From IMG/VR virus record IMGVR_UViG_2857083903_000001, positions 22,883-86,882 of that record: a stretch of 64,000 nt of DNA; one strand, 5' to 3'. A model generated the notes under the pieces. That model saw nothing but the letters and a program-made list of their open reading frames with translations. It searched no databases and had not been told where the DNA came from. Origin of the DNA: a virus. Taxonomy: Duplodnaviria > Caudoviricetes. Positions 12,838-62,673 of the stretch are shown in pieces; position 1 is the stretch's first letter, and every line of letters starts with the position of its first letter. Both the position numbers and the translations under genes were made by a program.

Positions 12838-14226
12838 GTGTCCCCCAGCATCCCCGCACAGCAACACGACCCTGCCGATGACACCGAACCGTGGGACGCC
12901 AAGCCCGACGGATGGAGCCGTACGCCCCCGCGAGACCTGGACGCCGAGCAGTCCGTCCTCGGGTCCCTGCTGCTGTCCGGGAGCCCCGGCAGCGCGTCGT
13001 CCCGGTACTTTGCCGAGGTCCTCGAGACCGGTCTCGTTGCCGAGGAGTACTACCGGCCCGCGCACCAGACCATCCACCGCGCGATCTGTGACCTCCACCA
13101 GGCCGGCGAGGCCGTGGACCCGGTCACGGTCGCCGACAAGCTCACCGAACGCGGCGAGATCACCCGTGCCGGCGGGCGTGCCTACCTGCATGCCTGCGTG
13201 CAGGCCGCTCCGACGGTCGCCAACGGCCCGTACTACGCCGAGATCGTCCGGGCCAAGGCGTACCGGCGGGCGGTCATCGACGCGGCGCAGCGCGTCCTGG
13301 AGTACGCGTACAGCGAGGAAGGCGACGAGAACGAAGTCCGGGACCTGGTCGAGCGGCAGCTCACCGAAATCATCTCGGGCATCTCCGGACTGCACGAGGC
13401 GCCCCCCACCGTCGGTGACCTCTACCTCGACTTCGTGTCTGACCTCGAGGACATCCAGAACGGGCAGCAGATCGGCCTGCCCTACGGCTTCGAGGACCTG
13501 GACACCCTGACCTCGGGCATGCGGCCGGGCAACGTGAGCGTGGTGGCGGCACAGTCCGGCGTGGGCAAGTCCACGTTCGCCCTGAACGCCGCGGTCGCCG
13601 CCGCAAAGACAGGCGCGCGGGTGATGTTCTCCTCGCTGGAAATGAGCAGCACCGAACTCATGCAGAAGATCGCCGCCGCGGAGGGGAAGATCGCCCTGCA
13701 CCACCTGACGCACCAGGGCGGGCTTACAGCCGAGGGCTGGGAGACGGTGAGGCGTCTTGGTCCGGAGCTGTTCCAGACGCTGCCGTTGCGGGTCTACCGG
13801 CCCGACGGCGCGTCCCTTGGCGACATCGCTTCAGCGGCACGGGCCTGCGCCCGCGACGGCGGCCTGGAACTCCTCGTCGTGGACTACCTCCAGCTCGTCG
13901 AGGTCGAGCAGTCCCGCAGCATCACCCGCGAGCAGGCCGTGGCGTCCGTGTCCCGCGGTCTGAAGAACCTGTCGGTGGAGCTGGGCTGCCACGTCATCGC
14001 CCTGTCGCAGCTCAACGACGACGGCTTGATGCGCGAGTCTCGGGCGATCAAGAACGATGCCTCGGTTGTCATCAAGGTCGAGCGGCCGGACGCGGACGAG
14101 CCGGAGTCAGCGCGGGCCGGCGAAGTCGACCTGGTGGTCGAGAAGAACAGGTTCGGGCCCACTGCCTGTGTCACCGTGGCTGCGCAGCTCCACTACTCGC
14201 GCTTCGTGGACATGACGCAGACCTGA
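12838..14226 (+). CDS. dnaB: Replicative DNA helicase
   Basis: AEQSVLGSLL, Walker A QSGVGKST, FSSLEMS, VDYLQL, ALSQL, KNRFGP. Confidence 0.93.
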   Translation: MSPSIPAQQHDPADDTEPWDAKPDGWSRTPPRDLDAEQSVLGSLLLSGSPGSASSRYFAEVLETGLVAEEYYRPAHQTIHRAICDLHQAGEAVDPVTVADKLTERGEITRAGGRAYLHACVQAAPTVANGPYYAEIVRAKAYRRAVIDAAQRVLEYAYSEEGDENEVRDLVERQLTEIISGISGLHEAPPTVGDLYLDFVSDLEDIQNGQQIGLPYGFEDLDTLTSGMRPGNVSVVAAQSGVGKSTFALNAAVAAAKTGARVMFSSLEMSSTELMQKIAAAEGKIALHHLTHQGGLTAEGWETVRRLGPELFQTLPLRVYRPDGASLGDIASAARACARDGGLELLVVDYLQLVEVEQSRSITREQAVASVSRGLKNLSVELGCHVIALSQLNDDGLMRESRAIKNDASVVIKVERPDADEPESARAGEVDLVVEKNRFGPTACVTVAAQLHYSRFVDMTQT

Positions 14227-22756: not shown

Positions 22757-23174
22757 CATGCAGACTACCCGGCACGCGCAGGCAGGCCGGAAAGGCATCA
22801 GGCGGGCCGGGATGGCGCGGGTGTGCTGGCGGCCGGTGTCGGGGCCCCTGGTGTAGGGCGGGAGGACACCGGCCGCAGTCAGACACGTTGCGAAGCAACC
22901 AGTAGGGGGCCGGTCCGATTGCCGCGCTGCGATTCCCCATAGGGAAACGGCTACCGAAACCGGTTACCCACCCGGTTTACCCGCAGACCCCCACCCGAGA
23001 AGCACCCCGACAGTAATTCGAACACCGCCACAGCACCCACAACCCCAGACAAGAGCCAGCACACGATCCCCAACAACCTGGCAGGCCAGGACCGCGCACA
23101 CCGATGATGCACCGGACAACTACCCGTTTTCCACGGAAGATTTTGAGGGGTAAACCTATGCTCACTACCTACAC

Positions 23175-38864: not shown

Positions 38865-40007
38865 TCATGCTTGTCGAGCCTTGACTGCCGCCTGAGTCTC
38901 CTCATCACGGCCGAGGCCAAGGAAGACGGTCGCCCGATCTTCGGCGGCCATCTTCCGCAAGAGCAAGAAGAGAGCCTCGCCGCCATGCTCGTAGGGGAAG
39001 CGCGGTGCCTGATTCTCCGCTTCCGCCGCAGTGGTGTCACGCGGCTCCGGAATCGACTCCGCGGTGCGGGTCTTGCCCAGTTCCGGCCCGCCGTCGCTGG
39101 GGTTGGGGTGTGCCGGTACGGCCGGCTTGGGAGCCGGTGCCGCCTCCGCTGGCGGGTATACCGCGGTATACGCGTCGGCCTCCTGCTGGGCTGGTACCTC
39201 CACTTGGGCCGGCGCCTCCACCTCAGGTCTGCTGGCAACCGCAGGCTCCACGGGAGGCGTCTCGGGCACCGTGTATACCGCGGTATACGCCGCCGGGGTC
39301 TCGGCGACGCCCGGCCGCTGCTGCTTGGTGGGGCGGGGCTGCTCCTGGTCCAGCTTCCAGGTGGCGTACTGCTCCTCCGGCGGCATCGCCGCATAGCGGC
39401 GCATCTCCCGGAACGCAGTCAGCTGGCCGTCGAGAACAAGCTGCACCATCTCGTCGGTGAGCCGAAGCAGGCCGATGCGCTGGTTGAACCACTGCTTCGA
39501 CTTGCCCATGGCCTTGGCCGCGGCGGACTGGTTGCCGTCGTGGAGGGTGAGCATGGCGTGCAGGCCGTTGGCTTCCTCGATGGGGTTGAAGTTGGCGCGC
39601 TGCACGTTCTCGGACAGCACCGCGGCGAGGAACCGGATACGGGACTCGGTGAGGTCGTGCCGGATCAGAAGATCCAGACTCTCCAGGCCGACGTTCACGG
39701 CCGCGCGCCAGCGGCGTTCACCAGCAGCCATCACGTACCGGCAGGTGTCCGGGAGCTCGTCGGCGTGCTCCGGATAGAGCTTGAGGTAGCTGGCTTTGGG
39801 GACGGCTACGCAGGGCTGGAGCTGCCCGGCCCGCATGTCTTCGCCGAGCTCGGTGAGTTCGGTTTCGTCGAAGTTCCGTCGCGGGTTCAGCGGGGTGGGG
39901 GCGACGGTGTTCGGGTGTACGTGGAGCAGGTCGGGTCGGCTGGCGCCGGGCACGGTCTCGACTTTGCTGGTGGCGAGGGAGGCGAGGGAGATGCGCTTGC
40001 CGGACAT
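38865..40007 (-). CDS. parB: ParB/Spo0J partition protein
   Basis: NPRRNFD, AGERRWRAA, ENVQR, PIEEA, HTH; TAATG overlap with parA. Confidence 0.9.
   Translation of the reverse strand: MSGKRISLASLATSKVETVPGASRPDLLHVHPNTVAPTPLNPRRNFDETELTELGEDMRAGQLQPCVAVPKASYLKLYPEHADELPDTCRYVMAAGERRWRAAVNVGLESLDLLIRHDLTESRIRFLAAVLSENVQRANFNPIEEANGLHAMLTLHDGNQSAAAKAMGKSKQWFNQRIGLLRLTDEMVQLVLDGQLTAFREMRRYAAMPPEEQYATWKLDQEQPRPTKQQRPGVAETPAAYTAVYTVPETPPVEPAVASRPEVEAPAQVEVPAQQEADAYTAVYPPAEAAPAPKPAVPAHPNPSDGGPELGKTRTAESIPEPRDTTAAEAENQAPRFPYEHGGEALFLLLRKMAAEDRATVFLGLGRDEETQAAVKARQA
39156..39171. promoter_or_regulatory. parS-like palindrome 1 (inside parB)
   Basis: GTATACCGCGGTATAC. Confidence 0.7.
39273..39288. 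promoter_or_regulatory. parS-like palindrome 2 (inside parB)
   Basis: GTATACCGCGGTATAC. Confidence 0.7.
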
Positions 40008-40669
40008 TAGCGTCGGCCTCCGTAGCCGCGCTCGAGGGCCAGGCGGAAGTAGTCCTCGCGGGCGCGGAGGGTGGTGCCGTTGTCGGCGTACTGGGTGACG
40101 ACCTTCCCTTCGGACGCCGCACGGGTGTGGATCTTGTATCGGCGGATGACGGTCTTCGCGCGGGGCCAGCCCATGGCGTCGATGTAGGCGATGGTGTCGT
40201 TGAGGTCGGCAACACCGTCGCGGGGGTCCCAGGCGTTGATGACGACGGTGTAGGGCAGGCCACGGGGCACGATGACCCGCTCGATGGTGCGGGCGGTCGG
40301 GTCGAACGCGAGGGGCTCGGGGGGCATGGGGACCAGAACGTCGTCGGCGACGTCGAGGGCGGCGGCGAGGATGTGTTCGTTCTCGAGGCTGCCGGGGGTG
40401 TCGATGAAGACGTGCTGCCGGCTGTCGGTGTCGCCGAGGACGTCGTGGGCGACGGCGGCGAGGTTGACGGCGGTGGTGGTCTTGCCGACTCCGCCCTTCT
40501 GGTTGCAGATGACGTGGATCTGCGCGCCGAGGTTTTTCAGTTCGGCGAGGCTGGCGGGGTCTTCGTGGGCGGCGGCGAAGTCGAAGGGGAGGTCGTCGCC
40601 GACGCGGTCGGCCCACCAGATGGTTGACCCTTGGGGGTCGGTGGACACGACGAGGATGCTGGAAGGCAT
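40007..40669 (-). CDS. parA: ParA ATPase with permuted motif order
   Basis: VVSTDPQGS (A') precedes NQKGGVGKTT (A); IDTPG (B). Confidence 0.85.
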   Translation of the reverse strand: MPSSILVVSTDPQGSTIWWADRVGDDLPFDFAAAHEDPASLAELKNLGAQIHVICNQKGGVGKTTTAVNLAAVAHDVLGDTDSRQHVFIDTPGSLENEHILAAALDVADDVLVPMPPEPLAFDPTARTIERVIVPRGLPYTVVINAWDPRDGVADLNDTIAYIDAMGWPRAKTVIRRYKIHTRAASEGKVVTQYADNGTTLRAREDYFRLALERGYGGRR

Positions 40670-40793
40670 GGTGCTCCGTTCCGTGTGCTTCCCGGAGGGT
40701 TTCCGGTACTCGGACGGGCCATAGCTTCTCAGATCGGGTGGGTGGGGCTGCTGATTGGGAGGCGGTTTCGGGTTGGGATTTCTGTGCGGGCGT

Positions 40794-40809
40794 GTATACC
40801 GCGGTATAC
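40794..40809. promoter_or_regulatory. parS-like palindrome 3 (upstream of parA)
   Basis: GTATACCGCGGTATAC. Confidence 0.7.
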
Positions 40810-41228: not shown

Positions 41229-42002
41229 TCAGGCGACGTCGAACGCCCGACGTGGTGCGGGGGCGGTGCCGGAGGCTTCTTGGCGCTTCCGGGCGAGGGC
41301 GGCCCGGTGGCTGGCGTCGCTCCGGTCGACCTGCCGGGCGGCCGCCTGCTCCAGGTCCACGGCGGGCTCGGGCTGCCGGTTGGCGCGGAGGGCGGCTTCC
41401 TGCCGTCGCATGGCCCGCTGAAGGTAGGGGTCGATGCTGGGGCGGGTGGGCTGGTGTTGGAGGGCTGCGGCGAGCGTCTGCCGGTAGCCAGGGCTGGCGG
41501 TCTCCCGTGTCCGTACCGGGCCGGGCTGCGGCTTGGGGGCGTCCGGGAGAGCGGCCGCCGCGGTGGTGAGGTTGGCGACGGGCAGGACACGAATCGTGCG
41601 GACCACGGGGCGGCCGAGCTTGTCGTTGATCTGCTTGGCGAGCTGCCCGCCGAGGAGTCGGAGTTGTGCGGCGTAGGCGTGGCTGGCGGGGCGGAGGTCG
41701 AGGCGTCCGGTCTGGTCCTCGTAGTGGGCGGGTTCGACGTGGCCGATGTACTGGGGGCAGAGGGAGGGCCACTGGTCGTGGATGCTGCCGCCGGCGAGGC
41801 CCGCTTCCATGGGGGCTTCGGCGTGCAGGTTGGCGATGGCGGTTGCGAGGCTGACCGGCTCACGGCCTTCTCCGTTGCGCGGTGGGCGCCTGCGCTTGGG
41901 CTTGGCCGGGGCGGCGCCGGGATAGGTGCGGGTGGCGGCTTTGTAGGTCTCGAGGGCTTGCCGGGCGAGGTCTTTCCCGGAGAGCTGCGGGGTGTCGGTC
42001 AT
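41229..42002 (-). CDS. DciA/DUF721-family protein with C-terminal extension
   Basis: DLARQAL, GREPVSL, DQWPSLCP, SHAYAAQLRLL, INDKLG..VRTIRV. Confidence 0.75.
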   Translation of the reverse strand: MTDTPQLSGKDLARQALETYKAATRTYPGAAPAKPKRRRPPRNGEGREPVSLATAIANLHAEAPMEAGLAGGSIHDQWPSLCPQYIGHVEPAHYEDQTGRLDLRPASHAYAAQLRLLGGQLAKQINDKLGRPVVRTIRVLPVANLTTAAAALPDAPKPQPGPVRTRETASPGYRQTLAAALQHQPTRPSIDPYLQRAMRRQEAALRANRQPEPAVDLEQAAARQVDRSDASHRAALARKRQEASGTAPAPRRAFDVA

Positions 42003-42877
42003 GCAGCACCGCCGAAGTCGAGGACACCCTGAACGAACCGGCCCTTTGCCAGCTCGTGGTACTCAGGATTGAGATCGACGCCTATGTACTTCCTGCCGAG
42101 TTGACGGGCCGCCGCGCCGGTCGTACCCGACCCAGAGAACGGATCAAGCACGGTTCCACCGGGCTTGCAGCCAGCCTTGATGCAACGCAGTGGCAGGTCG
42201 ATCGGGAACACCGCAAAGTGCGCGGCCGGGTACGGGCGGGTCGTGATGGACCAGACATCGCCGGGGTTGCGGCCATTACTGTCGTCTGCCGTACGGGAGG
42301 CGGAGCGAATTGAATCAAGATCGAACCAATAGCGGGGCTGCTTAGCGAGCATGAACAGGTGCTCGTGCCGGTTCGACAGCCGATCCCGGACACTCTCGGG
42401 CATGGCATTGGGCTTGTTCCAGATGATCTCGTTGCGGAGAAACCAACCGTCGTCCTGCAACGCGAACGCCACCCGCCACGGGATACCGAGAAGCTGCTTC
42501 ATCGCCAACCCTCCGCCGCTCTTGCCGCCACTCCCCGCAGGCGTCGTCAGGTGGTTGCTGCGGCCCACGAGACCGTCTGTTTTCGACTCGCTGCCCTTGG
42601 GGCTGCACACGTAGGAGTCACCAAGATTGAGCCACAACGTCCCGTCGTCGGCGAGCACCCGCCGCGCCTCGGCGAACAGGCTTCGCATCGTCTCCACGTA
42701 CTCGGCTGGCGACGCTTCCAGACCGTACTGGCCGTCCACGCCATACGACCGCAGTCCGTAGTACGGCGGGGAAGTCACCACGCAGTCGACGGATGCATCC
42801 GCCAGGGTGCGCAGGGTCTCGAGCGCGTCGCCGAGCAGCAGGGTGACCTGGTCGTCGCTGTAGTAGGGCTCGGTCAC
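41999..42877 (-). CDS. DNA methyltransferase, N4-C/N6-A beta class
   Basis: VTSPPYY, HFAVFP, VLDPFSGSGTT. Confidence 0.9.
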   Translation of the reverse strand: MTEPYYSDDQVTLLLGDALETLRTLADASVDCVVTSPPYYGLRSYGVDGQYGLEASPAEYVETMRSLFAEARRVLADDGTLWLNLGDSYVCSPKGSESKTDGLVGRSNHLTTPAGSGGKSGGGLAMKQLLGIPWRVAFALQDDGWFLRNEIIWNKPNAMPESVRDRLSNRHEHLFMLAKQPRYWFDLDSIRSASRTADDSNGRNPGDVWSITTRPYPAAHFAVFPIDLPLRCIKAGCKPGGTVLDPFSGSGTTGAAARQLGRKYIGVDLNPEYHELAKGRFVQGVLDFGGAA

Positions 42878-42890
42878 GGTTGGTCTCCGT

Positions 42891-44177
42891 TCAGAAGGCG
42901 GGGGCGAGGGTGTTACGGCGGGCGTTGATGGCCTCGAGGGCGAGGGTCTGATCGACGAGCCGGCTGGTGTAGAGGCGGCGGGCGTACTGCTCGCCGGCCA
43001 GTTCGATCGTGGTGAGGAGCAGGCCGGGGTCGGCCATGGCGTCCAGGCGCATCTGCACGACCTCCTCGGAGGTGAGGTCCTCGAGGTCGAGCGGGCTGTC
43101 TTCGACGGGCGTGGTGTCGGCGGCAAGGCGGCCGCTGATCGTGTTGAACGCCACGTCCCAAGCGCGGCGGGCAGCGGCGCTCTGGGGGCCTGCACCGAGG
43201 TCGCTGTAGTCGGGCTCGGCGTGGCGCTCCTGCGCGGCGTGCTGGGAGTCCTCCCACATGGCGACCAGCTCGGCCCGCTTGGCGGGGGTGTCGAACACGA
43301 GGTGCTTGGAGGCGAGGCGGGAGGCGAGCAGTCCGGAGGGCCGGGAGACACCGCGGGCGGGCAGGGGGGTGAGTTCGGCGGCGGCCTGGATCTCGCGGGC
43401 GGTCCAGCCCTGGTCGGTGAACTTGCGGATGACCCAGGCGATGCGTTCGCGGTTGGCGTGCTGCAGCCAGGTGACGGTGCGGATGAGTTCTCCGGCTACC
43501 TGGAAGCGGCGGCCGATCTTGTTCAGCTTCCGGGGCCTGTGGTTGGACTTCTTCGGGGTGGGGGACTTTGCCTGCCCGCTTGCGAGCTTGCTCTCAGGGG
43601 GGGAGTTAGTACTAGCCGCAGAAGAAGTGCCAGTAGTACCACCCTCCATTGGGGTGCAACGCGGTCCCTTCGAAGAGGGGGTGCGGTGGCGGGGGCGGCG
43701 GGTCTTCCGGGCGGCCTTCTTCGCCAGCTTCCCCAGCAGGGTCCGGGACTCTTCGGCGGCGCCGATCGGGCGGCGCGTTGCACCCTCGCCGATGGTGCGG
43801 ATACCGAGCGCGTGGTCGAAGGCGGCGGGGATGACGCGCTCGAACTCGGAGGCGCGGCCGCCGATGCCGCTGATGCGGGTGCCCTTGGTCCGGTAGACGA
43901 GGAGTCCGGCTTCGCGGAGCATCCCGAGGTGGTACTGGACGGTGCGTTCGGCGACCTTCAGCTTGCGGGCGAGGTAGTCGACGGATGGCCGGCATTCCTT
44001 GAGTGCGGCGATCTCCTGGGCGATGGCGATGGTGGTGGTGCCCCAGCGGGGGCCGTGGGTGCGGGCGGGGGTGTAGAGGCCGCTGCCGGCGATCCAGTGG
44101 ACGGCGGTCATCCAGGAGTGGGGGCAGGTGGTGATGCGGCCGCTGGTGGTGTGGAGCCACTGTTGTGTGGGGGGCAC
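42891..44177 (-). CDS. wHTH protein, probable plasmid replication initiator (start uncertain)
   Basis: CRPSVDYLARKLKVAERTVQYHLGMLREAGLL; adjacent to dciA/parAB. Confidence 0.55.
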   Translation of the reverse strand: MPPTQQWLHTTSGRITTCPHSWMTAVHWIAGSGLYTPARTHGPRWGTTTIAIAQEIAALKECRPSVDYLARKLKVAERTVQYHLGMLREAGLLVYRTKGTRISGIGGRASEFERVIPAAFDHALGIRTIGEGATRRPIGAAEESRTLLGKLAKKAARKTRRPRHRTPSSKGPRCTPMEGGTTGTSSAASTNSPPESKLASGQAKSPTPKKSNHRPRKLNKIGRRFQVAGELIRTVTWLQHANRERIAWVIRKFTDQGWTAREIQAAAELTPLPARGVSRPSGLLASRLASKHLVFDTPAKRAELVAMWEDSQHAAQERHAEPDYSDLGAGPQSAAARRAWDVAFNTISGRLAADTTPVEDSPLDLEDLTSEEVVQMRLDAMADPGLLLTTIELAGEQYARRLYTSRLVDQTLALEAINARRNTLAPAF

Positions 44178-47265: not shown

Positions 47266-48864
47266 TCACGCAGCAGCCACGAACCCGCTGCTCTCCGACC
47301 GGCTTATCTCCTCACCCGTGATCGCCTCCACCAGCGCGCACACCAGGACCTCGGCGGCGTTCGGCGTGACGGCGTTGCCGTACTGCCGGACCTTTTCCCG
47401 CTTGTTACCGAGGACTATGTAGTCATCGGCGAAGCTCATGGCCCGCCCGATCTCGTGAGGCTCGAGCATCCGGAACAGAACGTCGTCGATGTCGACCTCC
47501 CCCCGCACCAGCGCATACCGGTCGCGGGTGGTGAGCGCGCCGATCGGCTCGTTGACGGACCGCGGGGCGCCGGTGCCGTAGTACGGGATCAGCATGTTCT
47601 CAGAGGCACCGGCCGGGGCGACGAGCCCGTGATGGTTACCGGACGCCGTCACAGTGGCGAGGGACTCGCCCACCGACCGGGCGACAGAGCCGCCGCCGCG
47701 GAGCTCCGCGATGAACGGCAGCCACGCCAACCCCGTCTCGTTCCGGGTCGTCATCGTGCGCAGCGGCCCGTGCGCCGAAGCAGCATCCTTCCCATCCCGG
47801 CCCTCCACCGGGACCAGGAGCGGCGGCACCATCAGCGCATCGTTCTCGCGGGTGGTACGGGCAGGCATCGGCTCCCCGACACTGACCGCCGCGTCCCGCC
47901 AGGTACCGCCGGCCGGAACCATCATCGGGACCGGGCGGGCGAACTTCTTCAACCCGGCCTCGATCCGCCTGAGGGTCTTCTCCGCAAGCGGCTTGGCACG
48001 GTCACCGATGCGCTGACCGGGGATCGACCAGTCGATCGCTGCGGCGGCCGGGAGAGCCTCCGGCTCGACGACCTGGTTCCGGCACGAAGTGTTCGGACAC
48101 CGGTAGACGTACTGCTGCCGGTAGCGGCCCATGTCCCGCTTGGGGTCCTTGAACATCTGCATGGCCTGCACCCACGTGTCGCAGCCGGAGCACCAGGCGC
48201 GCGGCCGCAGCCACTTGTCCCAGTCGGGGGTACGACCCAGCGACTCGTGCCAGTAGCCGACGTACAGGCGGTCGCGGGATTGTGGCGCCCGGTGCACGGA
48301 CCGCGGGTTGGCGTGCATCGAGTTCAGGGCGATGATCCGGGTGCGGTATCCGAGCTTGTGGATCTCACCGATCCAGCGATCCCACTGGTCCCAGGCGCGG
48401 ACGTCGACGACGTTCTCGACGATCCCGGCCTTGACCAGGCCGCCCCGCTCGATCACGCCGCGCAGATACAGCGGCACCTCCTCCATCAGCGCACGGGACT
48501 CCTCCTCCGCGGTCGGCTGCTCCTCCTCGTCGTCGAGGCCGGCGAGGAGGTCGAGGAGGCTGCCCTGCATGGCGTTCTGGAAGTCCCGCTTCTTCCCCTT
48601 GGCCACCGACCAGTTGGTGCACTCCGGGGACGCCCAGAAGATGTCGGTGACGGGCCAGTCCCACACCGGCGCCTTACGGATGTCGCCCTGGTAGTGACTG
48701 GTCTCCGGGAAGTTCTCAGCGTGCGACTCAATCGCAAGCCGCCAATGGTTCGCCGCTCGCGCCACCCGGACGCCAGGCACAGCGTGGACGCCCTGCGAGG
48801 ACCCGCCAGCACCACAGAACCAGTCCATGACCGTGAGCGCGTTGTCATCGTTGCGGTAACCCAT
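47266..48864 (-). CDS. C5-cytosine DNA methyltransferase
   Basis: DWFCGAGG, SPECT, VENV, QSRDR, QYGNAV. Confidence 0.9.
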   Translation of the reverse strand: MGYRNDDNALTVMDWFCGAGGSSQGVHAVPGVRVARAANHWRLAIESHAENFPETSHYQGDIRKAPVWDWPVTDIFWASPECTNWSVAKGKKRDFQNAMQGSLLDLLAGLDDEEEQPTAEEESRALMEEVPLYLRGVIERGGLVKAGIVENVVDVRAWDQWDRWIGEIHKLGYRTRIIALNSMHANPRSVHRAPQSRDRLYVGYWHESLGRTPDWDKWLRPRAWCSGCDTWVQAMQMFKDPKRDMGRYRQQYVYRCPNTSCRNQVVEPEALPAAAAIDWSIPGQRIGDRAKPLAEKTLRRIEAGLKKFARPVPMMVPAGGTWRDAAVSVGEPMPARTTRENDALMVPPLLVPVEGRDGKDAASAHGPLRTMTTRNETGLAWLPFIAELRGGGSVARSVGESLATVTASGNHHGLVAPAGASENMLIPYYGTGAPRSVNEPIGALTTRDRYALVRGEVDIDDVLFRMLEPHEIGRAMSFADDYIVLGNKREKVRQYGNAVTPNAAEVLVCALVEAITGEEISRSESSGFVAAA

Positions 48865-49781
48865 CAGGCCGCCCCCCGTTCCCCGTTGTCCTGCGCCTGC
48901 TGCCCGAGCCGACTGATCTGGTTGTTCAGCAACTCCCGGAACGTCACCACCGACTGGTCCCTCAGCGTCACCTCCGCCTCGGCGACACCGTGCTTCTCCG
49001 CGTCCAGGACGATCTGACCCAGCGCATCCGAGTTCCCCCAGCACGACGACGCCTGACCCTGCAGCCGCGCCAGATGATCGACCCCGTCAGCATGGGCGGC
49101 CTGCGCCGGCGGCTCCTCCACATCCACGGAAGGCGCCTGCGGTTCCGGCTTCACCGGCGGGTCCACCGGCACCGGCTCCGGCGCGGCCTGCCGCTGCCAC
49201 TCACTCGGCGGATGAGCCGCAGAGAACTGCACCACCGCGTCACGAGAACCGTCGTTGTACAACGACAGCCCGAACTGGTCACCCAAGTTCGTCGCACAGC
49301 GCTTCACCGCCTGCGAGAGGCTCGTCTTCATCGCCATGTCGTGGGCATCGCCCACCGACGGCTGGTTCACCGCGTCCCCGGCAGCCCCGTCCTCCCAGTG
49401 GGAGATCTCCCGCCCGCTGGTGTCGTAGATGGTCAGCCGGACCTGGGCGCGGTAGACGACCGTCCAGGCCGTGAACGGGTCGCCGTAGTACTCGCCCTGC
49501 TTGTTCTTCCGCCGGAAGCCCTCCTGCCCGTGGTTGTGCACCAGGTCCAGAGAGAGCGTCTCGATGGAGAAGCCACCGAAGCCGAAGATGCGGATGAGCT
49601 GGCGCCGGACGTCCCAGGCTTCGAGGTGAGCCAGCCCGCGAAGGTTCTGGACCCGGTTCGGGTTGATGCCACCGTGCAGCAGGCGGAGCTGCGGGGCAGT
49701 CAGCCGGGCGACCTGATTTTGGGTGTGCGAGGTGGGGCCCTCCGCCATCGTGCCAGCGGGGGCCTCAATGGCCTGAGCCAT
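48864..49781 (-). CDS. Rad52/Sak-like single-strand annealing protein
   Basis: LIRIFGFGGF, AMKTSLSQAVKRCATNLGDQFGLSLY. Confidence 0.85.
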   Translation of the reverse strand: MAQAIEAPAGTMAEGPTSHTQNQVARLTAPQLRLLHGGINPNRVQNLRGLAHLEAWDVRRQLIRIFGFGGFSIETLSLDLVHNHGQEGFRRKNKQGEYYGDPFTAWTVVYRAQVRLTIYDTSGREISHWEDGAAGDAVNQPSVGDAHDMAMKTSLSQAVKRCATNLGDQFGLSLYNDGSRDAVVQFSAAHPPSEWQRQAAPEPVPVDPPVKPEPQAPSVDVEEPPAQAAHADGVDHLARLQGQASSCWGNSDALGQIVLDAEKHGVAEAEVTLRDQSVVTFRELLNNQISRLGQQAQDNGERGAA

Positions 49782-53687: not shown

Positions 53688-54338
53688 TCAGGCTGCCTTG
53701 CGTGCTGGTCGGCGGGCTCTCGCCTGCATGTGCTCCACGTTGATGAGTAGCCCAATGCGGTCGGAGTGGTACGGCCAGCGCGCGACGCCACCTTCCATGT
53801 GCAGGTGCATGTAGGTTCGGCTCGGCTTCGAGGTCCCCACCTCAAGGGGTACTCCGCCAGGCTCGACTAGCAGGCCCATGTTCACAGGAGATGTTCCGCA
53901 GTCGGTGATGAGGCCCAGACTGGACGACCTGTTCATGCTGATGTCAGTCTTCCAGGAGAGCCACCCATCGCAGTCGGCGCCGTTCTGTTCCATGTCCAGC
54001 TCCGGACAGAACAGCGGGTGGGTGCCTCGCAGTTTGGCGGCGTTGCCGACACGGTCGGCGTCCGGGCCGGGCATGGCGTTCACGGAGATCTCTACGCGGG
54101 CGTACAAGCCGGCCATGAGCCCCGTGTGAACCTTGAGGAAGGCTGCCACCTGCTCCAGAGGCCAGTAGGCGGGATCGTGCTGGGTCTGTCCGATCTGGGC
54201 CACGTACTGCTCGTCGAAGTCCCGTGCCTTGAAGCGGTTTCGCCAGTCCGCGAGGACAGCCGCTGCGCCAGGGTGGGTCAGGATCTCGTCCAACATCGAT
54301 TCGGCGATCTCTTCGTGCATGGTGCGTGCGCTGCTCAC
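53688..54338 (-). CDS. Hypothetical protein coupled to the recombinase
   Basis: GTGA overlap; lower GC. Confidence 0.6.
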   Translation of the reverse strand: MSSARTMHEEIAESMLDEILTHPGAAAVLADWRNRFKARDFDEQYVAQIGQTQHDPAYWPLEQVAAFLKVHTGLMAGLYARVEISVNAMPGPDADRVGNAAKLRGTHPLFCPELDMEQNGADCDGWLSWKTDISMNRSSSLGLITDCGTSPVNMGLLVEPGGVPLEVGTSKPSRTYMHLHMEGGVARWPYHSDRIGLLINVEHMQARARRPARKAA

Positions 54339-55369
54339 AGGCCGATTCCAATCAGTGCGTTGTCGTTCTCGTCCCACTGGTCAACGATCTGCATGTAGCC
54401 GTCCAAGACCTTCGAGCCGTCCGCGTGCCCAGTCACCGCAGCGATGGCCTTCCGGTCCTTCCCCGCCCGGCGGGCCTCCGTGGCCATGCCAGACCGCACT
54501 GAGTGGCCGGTGAACAGCTCCTCGAAGCCGGCGCGCAGCCCGGCCGCCGTGATGAGGTCGCCGGCGCGCTGCGGGGAGAGGCCCTGGGGTTGGACGGCAC
54601 CGGTGTGGTGGATACACCGGAACGCGTGCCGGTCGGGGTCGGTGATGCGGGCGGCGGCGGCCCACGTCTTCCAGGCCCGGACGGGGCAGGTGTCGGGGTT
54701 GGTGCCGTAGGGGACGGCGACGGTGCGGGGTTCGGTCTTGGAGACGCGGACGTCGACCAGGAGGCCGTTGTCGTCGTCGCGGATGTTGCGGAGGCGGAGT
54801 CCGGCGAGTTCGGCGCGGCGGGCGGCGATGGCGAAGCCGAGGAGGATCATGGCGCGGTCGCGGAGGCCGAAGATGTCGGTGTCGCACTTGGAGACGATGA
54901 CCCGCAGGTCGACCAACCGCATCGCGGGTGCCTTGCCGCGGCCGCGCCTGGGTTCCTCGGCGGCTTCGGCCTGCTTGCGGTAGTCCTTCAGCAACTCGCG
55001 GGCGGCGCGGGTGGCGTCGGGGTCGACGAGGATGCTGTACGGCGGCCGCCGGAGGGTGACGACGACGCCGGCGAGCTTGCGGTCGATGGTGGCGTAGGCG
55101 CGTTTCTCGCGGTTCCAGAGGTAGTCGACGAAGGCGCGGAGGGTGCCGCGGGTGGCGGCGGTGGTGGGGATCTGGAGTTGGGTGCAGAAGGTTTCCCAGG
55201 TGCGCCAGTCGCTGGCGTAGGAGCGGGTGGTGTTGTCGGGGCGTTGTCCGGCGGCGTGTTGGTCGCTGGCGGCGTCGAGGGTGGCGAGGCGGGCGCGGAG
55301 TTCGGCGCTGTACTGGTCGGGTAGGAGCGGCGGTTCGGCCTGTCTGGCAGGCAGGCGCTCAGCGCTCAT
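54335..55369 (-). CDS. Cre-like tyrosine recombinase/resolvase
   Basis: NTTRSYASDW, RDRAMILLG..AARRAEL, SKT, TCPVRA, GHSVRSG, TGH..LDGY. Confidence 0.9.
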   Translation of the reverse strand: MSAERLPARQAEPPLLPDQYSAELRARLATLDAASDQHAAGQRPDNTTRSYASDWRTWETFCTQLQIPTTAATRGTLRAFVDYLWNREKRAYATIDRKLAGVVVTLRRPPYSILVDPDATRAARELLKDYRKQAEAAEEPRRGRGKAPAMRLVDLRVIVSKCDTDIFGLRDRAMILLGFAIAARRAELAGLRLRNIRDDDNGLLVDVRVSKTEPRTVAVPYGTNPDTCPVRAWKTWAAAARITDPDRHAFRCIHHTGAVQPQGLSPQRAGDLITAAGLRAGFEELFTGHSVRSGMATEARRAGKDRKAIAAVTGHADGSKVLDGYMQIVDQWDENDNALIGIGL

Positions 55370-55638
55370 GACTTCCAGTCCAGTTGCTCGCCCTTGCGGA
55401 TGTACTTGCCGCTGCGGTGGTCGAAGATGAGCGCCTTGCCTTGCTGTACGCCGATGCTCTTTCGGACAGGCATCCCCCATAGTCGGCAACCTTCGAGCCC
55501 CTCGGCGTCCTCAGGGTTCAGGAAGACCTCCAGCTTGTCGGAGTTGGTGATGGTGAGGGCCCACGCCTGTGTGTCGTGAATCTCCGTCCCCAGGGATGAC
55601 GTCATGAGCCGTTCGAGGGCGGTTCTCCAGTCGCTCAC
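55366..55638 (-). CDS. Hypothetical protein
   Basis: Coupled at both ends. Confidence 0.6.
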   Translation of the reverse strand: MSDWRTALERLMTSSLGTEIHDTQAWALTITNSDKLEVFLNPEDAEGLEGCRLWGMPVRKSIGVQQGKALIFDHRSGKYIRKGEQLDWKS

Positions 55639-60544: not shown

Positions 60545-61708
60545 TCAGACCTTGGGAACGCGGAGCTTGTCCCAGGACGCCTTGCCGGGGATGCCGTCGG
60601 CCGCGGTGCCGGTGTAGCCGAGCTTGCGCTGCCAGGCGGCGTAGGAGTCGCGGTCGACGGTGGTCCAGTTCGGTCCCGGCCCGGACCGGTACTTGCCGCA
60701 GCCGACGGCTACCAGGCGGCGCCCCATCGCGGTGATGATCGGGCTGTGACGGCCGCCGTGGAAGAACCCAGCGCCGGGGAACGGCTCGTACTGCAAGGCG
60801 GACGGGGACGGCTTCGACGGGGCCGGCGCAGTCGACGGCTGGCCGGGCACGATGTCCGTGTTGATGGCGCCAGGGTCCCAGTGGGTCTGACCGGGGACCT
60901 GGCCGTGGGCGAAGTGGCCGCCCTTGGACTGCCACGTGCTGCGGTTCCGGGGGGTCTTGGCGACCGCTGCGGCGGTGGCGAGCGGCTTGCCCGCGGGCCA
61001 GGTGTCGGCGATGCCGTGGGCGCGCATCGCTGCCAGCAGCTTGCGGAAGTTCGGCTTGCCCGCCGGGTCGAATCCGTTCGTCCACGGGGAGGCGGCACGG
61101 CCGAGGACCTCGACCTGGATGCACACCTTGCCTTCGCGGTTGGTGCGGCGGGAGCCGTCGTTCTGCAGCGCCCGTGCGGACTGGGTGAGCGGCCCGAACT
61201 GGCCGAGCTTGTCAGAGATGGGGTCGTAGATGACCTGAGGTTCGGAGGCGACCCGGATCAGGTAGAGGGCGACCGAGTTGAAGTAGGCGTCGCCGGCCGG
61301 GGACTCGGTGGTGTGCCAGACCGCGCGGGGCGGGTTGCCGGGGTAGTCCATGGCGCCGCCGATGGACTGGTCACCGAACTTGACGACTCCGTCGATGTAG
61401 GCGGGCCCGGACGACAGGGTGCGCGGCTCGTCGGCGGTCTTGGCGCGCTTGGGTTCCGGGTCGGGCTGGTGGACGCGGTACTCGGTGGCCCCGTCGGGCA
61501 CGTACACGTCCAGGTCACCGTCGTCGCGGAGCACCATGAACGCGCCCTCGACGTGGGGGTGGTCCCGTACGAAGCGGGGGGAGGTGTCGAGCGCGGCGAT
61601 GGCCCGGACCTCGTCCACGTGCTCCTGCGTGCAGGTGCCGTGGTAGGTGGTGGTGACCTGCCCGGAGTCGGCGTCCAGGTGGTCGATGGCGACGTGGAAG
61701 GCGGTCAT
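60545..61708 (-). CDS. Endolysin: N-terminal extension + amidase-2-like + peptidoglycan-binding domain
   Basis: VWHTTE, IQVEV, H-x3-PG-x2-HWDPG; WQRKLGY..ADGIPG. Confidence 0.85.
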   Translation of the reverse strand: MTAFHVAIDHLDADSGQVTTTYHGTCTQEHVDEVRAIAALDTSPRFVRDHPHVEGAFMVLRDDGDLDVYVPDGATEYRVHQPDPEPKRAKTADEPRTLSSGPAYIDGVVKFGDQSIGGAMDYPGNPPRAVWHTTESPAGDAYFNSVALYLIRVASEPQVIYDPISDKLGQFGPLTQSARALQNDGSRRTNREGKVCIQVEVLGRAASPWTNGFDPAGKPNFRKLLAAMRAHGIADTWPAGKPLATAAAVAKTPRNRSTWQSKGGHFAHGQVPGQTHWDPGAINTDIVPGQPSTAPAPSKPSPSALQYEPFPGAGFFHGGRHSPIITAMGRRLVAVGCGKYRSGPGPNWTTVDRDSYAAWQRKLGYTGTAADGIPGKASWDKLRVPKV

Positions 61709-62529
61709 CGGGAGGCGTCCAATCGAGGCTGTACGACGTCGATGTCGTGGCGGAGGGCCTGGTAGAGGGCGAGTGACATACGAAAGTCGCCGTGGTCGGC
61801 CCAGGAGGAGGACCAGGAGTTCCGTATGCGGAGCACGGTGCGTGCGTAGTCGAGGTCGCCGTCGGGTCGGTAGGTGACGTGCTCGAGCGCGGTCACGCAC
61901 ACTTCGTGGCCGCCGGCGATGGGCGAGTCCTGCCAGTTGGGAAGGTCGTCCAGCAGGGCATGCTTGCCGGGCGGGGTGAAGAACTCCTCGTACCAGGGCA
62001 TGCCGATCAGGAGGGGCCCGGTCTGGAGGTCGCGGCAGAGTTCCTCGGCGGTGGTGGCGTGCCCGTACTGGTCGATAAGGCCGCGGCCGCGCAACGCTTT
62101 GGCGACGCCGAGGCCGGAGGAGCCGCAGTCCTGGTCGGGCCAGGCCGAGTCGTGCCACTGGTCGCGGTGGGTGGCGTCGCTGTAGAGGCCGATAGCCCAC
62201 GATTCGGCGGCGGCCGGGTCGGTGACGTCCAGGCCGGCGGCCGCCAGCTCGTCGGCGGTGTGAAGGATGGAGATGAGGGCCGTGGCCGCGTTGGCGGTGC
62301 AGGACCCGAGGGCGTCCACGTCGCCGACACCTTCGACCAGGGTGGAGGTGCGGATGCCCTGGGCGAGGAGGTCCTGCTGGTTGAGGACGGGAACCTTGGG
62401 TGCCCATTCCACGGGGTGGATGGGTTCGCCGGTGTAGCGGCGCCGGTAGGCGAGGCTGCGGGGGTCCAGGACGAGGTGCCTGCCGAGGGCAGGGGTGACC
62501 TCGTATTCGTGAATGGTCAGGTCGGGCAC
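61705..62529 (-). CDS. Papain-like (C1) cysteine peptidase
   Basis: LNQ, GSCTANA, GGHEV, RNSW. Confidence 0.8.
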   Translation of the reverse strand: MPDLTIHEYEVTPALGRHLVLDPRSLAYRRRYTGEPIHPVEWAPKVPVLNQQDLLAQGIRTSTLVEGVGDVDALGSCTANAATALISILHTADELAAAGLDVTDPAAAESWAIGLYSDATHRDQWHDSAWPDQDCGSSGLGVAKALRGRGLIDQYGHATTAEELCRDLQTGPLLIGMPWYEEFFTPPGKHALLDDLPNWQDSPIAGGHEVCVTALEHVTYRPDGDLDYARTVLRIRNSWSSSWADHGDFRMSLALYQALRHDIDVVQPRLDASR

Positions 62530-62673
62530 AGGCCCGTACTCCTGGATCTCCCCGCGCCCAGGTTTGATGGTGGCGGACCACTAGGTGTGGTCGTCCCTCG
62601 GGGGCGGATCTGCGGGCGGAGGGTCGCCCGTTGATCTCAGGCTACGGCCTGCGGGGTGGGGTGTTCCCCCTGC

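Follow-up and report, generated by a model that had tools for sequence, protein, structure and literature searches.

ATPases of the ParA/MinD group carry three sequence motifs in the canonical linear order Walker A, A' (switch I) and Walker B, and the textbook form of the A' motif is hhhDxDPQ. Non-circular permutations of enzyme cores are rare, and few known topologies are as conserved as that of the P-loop NTPase core. The closest described relatives of the protein studied here are small ParA proteins: ParF/TP228 ParA (PDB 4dzz, 4e07 and 5u1g), the Synechocystis ParA 3cwq and the curated family NF041546. The protein in question is the product of a parA gene in a 64,000-nucleotide stretch of viral DNA (record IMGVR_UViG_2857083903_000001, positions 22,883 to 86,882), which we refer to as the window and which corresponds to C2:22883-86882 of a two-contig genome. 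Like these relatives, which are about 205-220 residues long, the window ParA has a Walker A motif with a signature lysine, a DPQ motif and an hhhDTPG motif. With the small type-Ib proteins ParF and 3cwq it also shares the fold of residues 49-220 and a ParB partner encoded downstream, but its first two modules stand in the reverse linear order. We propose that an 86.9-kb Streptomyces plasmid-prophage similar to pZL12, pSLE1 and pSAM1 very probably uses the window ParA as its working partition ATPase, a type-Ib protein in which the ParA fold has been kept while the chain has been non-circularly permuted.

Order of motifs and modules in the window ParA

The open reading frame of 220 codons places ILVVSTDPQGS at residues 5-15, NQKGGVGKTT at residues 56-65 and IDTPG at residues 89-93, which bears out the motif positions and the order A', Walker A, Walker B claimed in an earlier annotation made from the sequence alone (the original prediction). 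The three sequence motifs that define ParA/MinD ATPases were all found: a deviant Walker A (K58-G-G-V-G-K63-T64, signature lysine K58 included), an A'/switch-I motif and a Walker B motif. Their linear order departs from the canonical one. We divided the chain into an A'/switch-I module (P, residues 1-48), a relocated Walker-A module (A, residues 49-81) and a core with the Walker-B strand (C, residues 82-220); the window ParA thus reads P-A-C and canonical ParAs read A-P-C. Profile searches recognized parts of the chain, with AAA_31 matching residues 51-73 (39.5 bits, cut-off 27) and PF01656 (CbiA) scoring 34.3 bits against a gathering cut-off of 25.4. The NF041546 profile matched in two stretches, the better of which aligned residues 82-199 with profile positions 75-192.

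Pairwise alignments with solved and unsolved relatives located the boundaries of the rearrangement. A phmmer comparison with the canonical 3cwq_A returned three stretches that were out of order: residues 53-73 aligned with 4-24 (Walker A), residues 5-31 with 31-55 (A') and residues 84-200 with 68-182 (core). In BLASTP alignments with the canonical relative P0123, modules A and C were colinear and were separated by a 46-residue gap at the position of module P of P0123. The reciprocal pattern emerged with P0122, a circular permutant whose Walker A is C-terminal: modules P and C aligned colinearly (53% identity, gap counted) around a 34-residue gap placed exactly at module A of the window ParA, and residues 45-80 of the window protein matched the C-terminal residues 195-230 of P0122 (69% identity, E 4e-13). 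Further, in canonical relatives module P matched the region that follows Walker A, with identities of 33-66%. Judged from these alignments, the difference is a clean cut-and-paste of a strand/P-loop/helix module of about 33 residues, which here separates the A' module from the Walker-B core. No rotation of A-P-C yields P-A-C, and the permutation is therefore non-circular.

Predicted structure

An AlphaFold2 model of the window ParA, built with a 119-row alignment, is a single compact domain with a predicted local distance difference test (pLDDT) score of 93.1 and a predicted template modeling score (pTM) of 0.91; block means for residues 1-50 range from 86 to 93. Module P is predicted to contain a strand (5-9), a helix (15-26), a second strand (30-33) and a second helix (38-47). 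These elements are followed by the strand (50-54) and helix (63-78) of module A and by module C, which begins with the strand at 86-90. The best Foldseek matches of the model are ParF, TP228 ParA, 3cwq and Soj (E about 1e-9). With VIA-align, residues 49-220 of the model superpose on residues 1-206 of ParF (4dzz_A; Z 18.3, root-mean-square deviation 2.4, 162 residues aligned), a match that comprises modules A and C and skips the A' region of ParF. Thus, in the model, residues 49-220 have the ParA fold, and the AlphaFold modeling proposed in the original prediction gave a confident single domain, of which sequential aligners superpose this part on ParF and Soj.

The position of module P was approached through the circular permutant. 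The P0122 model, built from only 8 sequences, has a pLDDT of 84.2, and its residues 4-191 (modules P and C) align on residues 28-206 of ParF (Z 17.6, 174 residues aligned). Because P and C of P0122 superpose on this part of ParF, module P can be equated with the canonical A' region, and residues 1-48 of the window ParA would occupy the canonical strand-2 position in space.

Conservation and distribution

A word-indexed search covering 5.8 billion proteins returned 863 matches. The best 120 of these were 64-96% identical to the window ParA, nearly all over 95-100% of its length (two partial sequences cover 75-76%), and came from Streptomyces, Kitasatospora, Actinomadura, Actinoallomurus, Actinocorallia, Embleya, Yinghuangia and a record labeled Leifsonia. 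The P-A-C order was kept in all 16 homologues that were aligned (66-91% identical). An end-to-end alignment of 119 P-A-C sequences has a mean column identity of 59%, with D11, Q13, K58, G59, G60, G62, K63, T64, T65, D90, P92 and G93 invariant and P12 nearly so.

The same order was found on plasmids, in a phage and in bacterial genomes. The closest PLSDB record is plasmid pSAM1 of S. ambofaciens (89,658 bp), whose ParA is 94% identical, and each of the best 30 plasmid records matched the window ParA as a single colinear piece; the ParA of pSLE1 also has the P-A-C order. The only two matching phage records are both Streptomyces phage ZL12, that is, the plasmid-phage pZL12 (90,435 bp), whose ParA aligns in one piece with residues 1-218 at 65.1% identity. 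Of 401 genomes sampled from the same family, 31 carry a full-length colinear copy at 63-100% identity (the genome of the window included). Weaker full-span matches in the genomes (42-58% identity, from about residue 5 to residues 212-219) were considered as further permutants and rejected, since those fetched were canonical: all seven loci retrieved (five such matches and two matching in the core only) read A-P-C. The chromosome of the window's own genome matched only in the P-loop stretch, at 21 bits.

Sequencing data added one independent observation. A 784-nucleotide contig assembled from the RNA-Seq library of another organism (run X16, record 12) covers positions 39972-40680 colinearly with 52 differences; it holds the whole permuted parA of a relative about 93% identical and spans both module junctions. 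No sequencing run contained at least half of the words of the stretch, the best share being 0.21, and reads of the window itself were not found among the runs; a spike in read depth at 40438-40519 was discarded as a feature of parA because it reflects the conserved P-loop region of many organisms. The homologue search suggested in the original prediction thus recovered the same order in abundance and from many independent assemblies. Given so many independent occurrences, the order is due neither to chance nor to misassembly, and the protein is a natural one, as first supposed.

Alternative module orders within the clade

When 1.84 billion cluster representatives were searched exhaustively with HMMER, 580 of them matched, and among the best 150, which were the ones used, many close matches aligned with the window ParA in three stretches. 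We collected relatives from the best 120-150 of the 580-897 matches of each search and mapped the three modules by BLAST in the 356 proteins obtained. The canonical order A-P-C was found in 161 of them and P-A-C in 132; seven proteins and one C-A fragment represented a third arrangement, P-C-A, and the remaining 55 were partial or too distant for the modules to be mapped. The circular permutants with a C-terminal Walker A are P0122, P0124, P0143, P0166, P0215, P0271, P0274 and P0282. Pairwise identities among these eight proteins range from 30 to 65%, and their C-termini run from ...LALELGYG through a linker into RIHVIANQKGGVGKTT...DVLG. The picture is therefore wider than first noted, as the clade holds canonical forms and circular permutants besides the order of the window.

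Intermediates of duplication or fusion (A-P-A-C, A-P-C-A or tandem forms) were sought, but neither module A nor module P matched any of the 356 proteins at two non-overlapping places. A search for longer proteins (386-2000 residues) yielded a single match at E <= 1e-10, P0357, and no fusion intermediate; P0357 proved to be a canonical protein with a spurious N-terminal extension. P0152, flagged by a DxQ at residue 2, was likewise canonical.

For the phylogeny, the three modules were aligned separately and joined in a supermatrix of 119 rows and 208 columns, leaving out fragments that lacked a module and near-duplicates above 82% (or 70%) identity; from the smaller tree set, 10 of 11 flagged long-branch rows were also removed, P0197_APC being kept. 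All 34 P-A-C rows, all seven P-C-A rows and 52 canonical rows fell into one clade (Shimodaira-Hasegawa-like approximate likelihood-ratio test, 99), apart from 26 more distant ParAs. Because this outgroup is canonical throughout, the canonical order is taken as ancestral. Resolution inside the mixed-order clade is poor, and a tree of the core alone was set aside as too poorly resolved. The unconstrained tree of 119 rows implies two changes for P-A-C (with P0137 apart) and three for P-C-A, and that of 57 rows implies four for each, yet approximately unbiased tests rejected a single clade in no case (P-C-A, p 0.78 and 0.26; P-A-C, p 0.60; union of the two, p 0.26). At least two rearrangements have occurred in the clade. 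P0137 (234 residues), which has the P-A-C order but is distant from the window ParA, with 48% identity, lies outside the main P-A-C group on the unconstrained trees.

We consider it moderately probable that strand 1, the P-loop and helix 1 form a portable cassette within this single clade of actinobacterial plasmid ParAs, in which they are N-terminal, internal (as in the window and pZL12) or C-terminal. Each of the three connectivities seems to be maintained by selection, and the predicted fold is that of ParA in every case.

The probable partition locus and its replicon

The genes and sites of the locus are collected in Table 1. As the original prediction held, parA has its own putative ribosome-binding site, a GGAG 4 nucleotides 5' of the ATG, and is coupled to the next gene through TAATG, in which the parA stop TAA (40009-40007) overlaps the parB ATG (40007-40005). 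The product of this downstream gene has a ParB_N domain (PF02195, E 1.8e-10) and an HTH_ParB domain (PF17762, E 5e-9) and scores 81.4 bits with TIGR00180, against a cut-off of 58.45. After the helix-turn-helix domain, the ParB tail (38868-39500, minus strand) is a long low-complexity stretch rich in proline, alanine and glutamate that matches no family and holds two of the palindromes described below.

A perfect 16-bp palindrome, GTATACCGCGGTATAC, occurs three times where no copy would be expected; all three copies lie at the parAB operon, and none is found elsewhere in the 6.43-Mb genome. The two copies inside parB translate as YTAVY. In pSAM1 (L001) the operon likewise has the palindrome three times, once within parB and twice upstream of parA. 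The copies are good candidates for parS sites. The locus as a whole fits an ordinary type-Ib parA-parB-parS partition cassette with an extraordinary chain order in its ATPase.

The replicon (C2) has 86,882 bp and a GC content of 68.7%, compared with 71.9% for the 6.34-Mb chromosome. It is similar to the Streptomyces plasmids of 85-93 kb that include pSLE1, pSAM1 and pZL12, and it looks like a plasmid-prophage of the pZL12 type. The paper describing pSLE1 reports its synteny with the plasmid-phage pZL12 and does not mention the rearrangement. The DciA-like neighbor of parA is annotated likewise in pSAM1 and pSLE1.

Table 1. Features of the parAB locus and of the surrounding window (positions in the window).
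Feature	Position	Strand	Remarks
parA	40007..40669	-	220 aa + stop; A' module, Walker-A module, Walker-B core
Module P (A'/switch I), residues 1-48	40526..40669	-	A' motif at nt 40625-40657; aligns with 3cwq_A 31-55 and the N-terminal module of P0122
Module A (relocated element), residues 49-81	40427..40525	-	Walker A at nt 40475-40504; aligns with the N-terminus of P0123 and the C-terminus of P0122
Core C, residues 82-220	40010..40426	-	Walker-B strand HVFIDTPG (IDTPG at nt 40391-40405) and remaining ParA fold
Shine-Dalgarno-like GGAG	40674..40677	-	4 nt upstream of parA ATG
parB	38865..40007	-	380 aa + stop; C-terminal half Pro/Ala/Glu-rich
Palindrome GTATACCGCGGTATAC, candidate parS, copy 1	39156..39171	.	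16 bp; within 3' part of parB
Palindrome GTATACCGCGGTATAC, copy 2	39273..39288	.	within parB
Palindrome GTATACCGCGGTATAC, copy 3	40794..40809	.	125 bp upstream of parA start
DciA/DUF721-like gene	41232-42002	-	PF05258, E 5.1e-9; just upstream of parA
PHROG matches	12838-14226 (+), 41999-43351 (-), 47266-49044 (-), 54335-55489 (-), 60545-62581 (-)		DnaB-like helicase, two DNA methyltransferases, integrase, endolysin

Proposed mechanism and alternative explanations

In the evolutionary scheme that we favor, module A would have been excised from the N-terminus and reinserted between modules P and C, converting A-P-C into P-A-C. As each module opens with a strand and closes with a helix, all three would have both of their ends on one face of the central sheet, where short linkers could join the modules in any order and would have reconnected them here. 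The three-dimensional ParA fold and the active site, with signature Lys58, P-loop Lys63 and Thr64, A' Asp11 and Walker-B Asp90, would thereby be preserved despite the new connectivity. As with other ParAs, an ATP-bound sandwich dimer of the window ParA would bind the nucleoid, and hydrolysis, stimulated by ParB bound to the flanking 16-bp palindromes, would drive segregation of the plasmid. We infer the ATPase activity, the dimerization, the function of the parS candidates and the route of the rearrangement. The original prediction of a segment-permuted P-loop ATPase with rewired topology thus stands for a natural, conserved and selected chain and for the fold of residues 49-220, and the placement of residues 1-48 and the hydrolysis of ATP keep the standing of inferences.

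Several observations weigh against a functional, permuted partition ATPase. The Pfam CbiA match spans residues 53-188 only, and the curated equivalog NF041546 (ParA_partition) scores 72.2 bits against a cut-off of 180. The A' motif has S9 where the textbook form has its first aspartate, a change that is shared by the canonical relatives of the clade. Residues 1-48 were left unaligned by the structural aligners, all of which are sequential. One in-frame TGA interrupts each of two of the 31 genomic copies (G245 and G272), and the plasmid copy P0038 (CP042280.1, L007) is frameshifted in its middle and tail. For the close pair of window and pSAM1, the ratio of nonsynonymous to synonymous substitution rates (dN/dS) of module P is 0.69, a value that rests on only 9 changes. 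The contig from the RNA library hints at transcription but is no proof of it.

The low NF041546 score and the three copies with a stop or frameshift would suit a decaying or inactive ParA, whose ATPase was broken by the rearrangement and which now serves ParB in a structural or regulatory way, if it serves at all. We regard such a relic as unlikely. The catalytic residues are all invariant in the 119-sequence alignment, the predicted fold is confident, and the family, an old one, occurs in several genera of actinomycetes. Further, Nei-Gojobori estimates for the window gene and three plasmid homologues gave dN/dS values of 0.085-0.243 in all six pairwise comparisons. In the three most diverged pairs, module A had the lowest values (0.03-0.13, compared with 0.08-0.10 for module P and 0.11-0.15 for module C). 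This pattern of substitutions indicates that the window parA is under purifying selection.

Recruitment of a ParA-like NTPase to a role outside partition, such as anti-phage or anti-plasmid conflict or the regulation of the prophage, is quite unlikely as well. It would agree with the nature of the replicon, a plasmid-prophage that encodes methyltransferases as well as an integrase and an endolysin, and a recent preprint proposes, for many ParA lineages, a wide recruitment into immunity (bioRxiv 10.64898/2026.10.19.760177). Yet the gene is translationally coupled to one that encodes ParB_N and HTH_ParB domains, the flanking palindrome is absent from the rest of the genome, an effector domain is neither fused nor adjacent, and the nearest relatives of solved structure act in plasmid partition.

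Another reading would treat residues 1-48 as an unrelated extension of a ParA that merely lacks its A' module, in which case nothing would have been permuted. In its favor, the sequential structural aligners leave these residues unaligned, and the A' stretch taken alone scores weakly against 3cwq (-1.3 bits). It is nonetheless very unlikely, because residues 3-46 are colinear with the A' module of P0122 within the 53%-identity alignment, module P resembles what follows Walker A in the canonical relatives, and the DPQ motif is invariant or nearly so. Only 8 residues separate the helix at 63-78 from the Walker-B strand at 86, a spacing that leaves no room for another A' strand. Finally, an artifact of assembly or annotation (a canonical parA that was misjoined or frameshifted, or a misplaced start that hides an upstream Walker A) is refuted by the independent occurrences: the frame is open for 335 codons from stop to stop and the sequence 5' of the ATG is formally translatable, but it lacks a Walker A and any ATG, GTG or TTG codon, the assembly consists of two contigs without N, and the same order and N-terminus recur in the 119 aligned proteins from many sources, on complete plasmids, in the 31 genomes, in phage ZL12 and across both junctions of the independent 784-nucleotide contig.

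Comparison with known systems

A working, non-circularly permuted ParA would have consequences beyond this locus. The phosphate-binding strand, loop and helix would have moved within the chain in a large family, present in about 7% of the sampled genomes of one actinomycete family. If so, the clade would be the first in which a SIMIBI ATPase core occurs naturally as a series of permutants, non-circular as well as circular, and would offer a natural test of proposals that the P-loop beta-alpha unit is an autonomous ancestral building block. Three homologues that are 50-65% identical and have three connectivities make folding, ATPase kinetics and dimerization directly comparable. For annotation, profiles see only part of a permuted ParA, as with the partial Pfam span and the subthreshold NF041546 score reported above. 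Our literature search found no permuted ParA, MinD, SIMIBI or Walker ATPase, within a coverage that excluded most subscription journals, where an earlier remark may exist; in the accessible text of the 2026 ParA preprint (bioRxiv 10.64898/2026.10.19.760177), the string "permut" refers to FHA domains only.

The nearest points of comparison are in the clade itself. Its canonical ParAs (for example P0123, P0125, P0127-P0133 and L013 from G009) are 48-60% identical to the window ParA, and up to 73% in the core, and have in common with it the residues SxDPQ, WW, LPFDF, RRYKxHTRA and LALELGYGG; their order is A-P-C, whereas that of the window is P-A-C. The circular permutants of the P0122 type have the same three modules, the same A' start and up to 68% identity to the window core. 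Their C-terminal module A (P-C-A) makes them true circular permutations, which the P-A-C chain of the window is not.

Outside the ParA proteins, the TRAFAC GTPases of the YlqF/RsgA type are circularly permuted. As in the window ParA, the motifs of a P-loop NTPase have been naturally reordered in these GTPases and the fold has been kept, but they belong to another class (TRAFAC, not SIMIBI) and their permutation is circular. Natural non-circular permutation has been described for the HK97-like capsid fold of phage BPP-1 (PMC3863775) and in a survey of non-cyclic permutations in proteins (PMC2096629). These cases resemble the window ParA in a segment order that lies beyond circular permutation and in the retention of the fold, and differ from it in that their folds are unrelated and none is known to concern a P-loop NTPase core.

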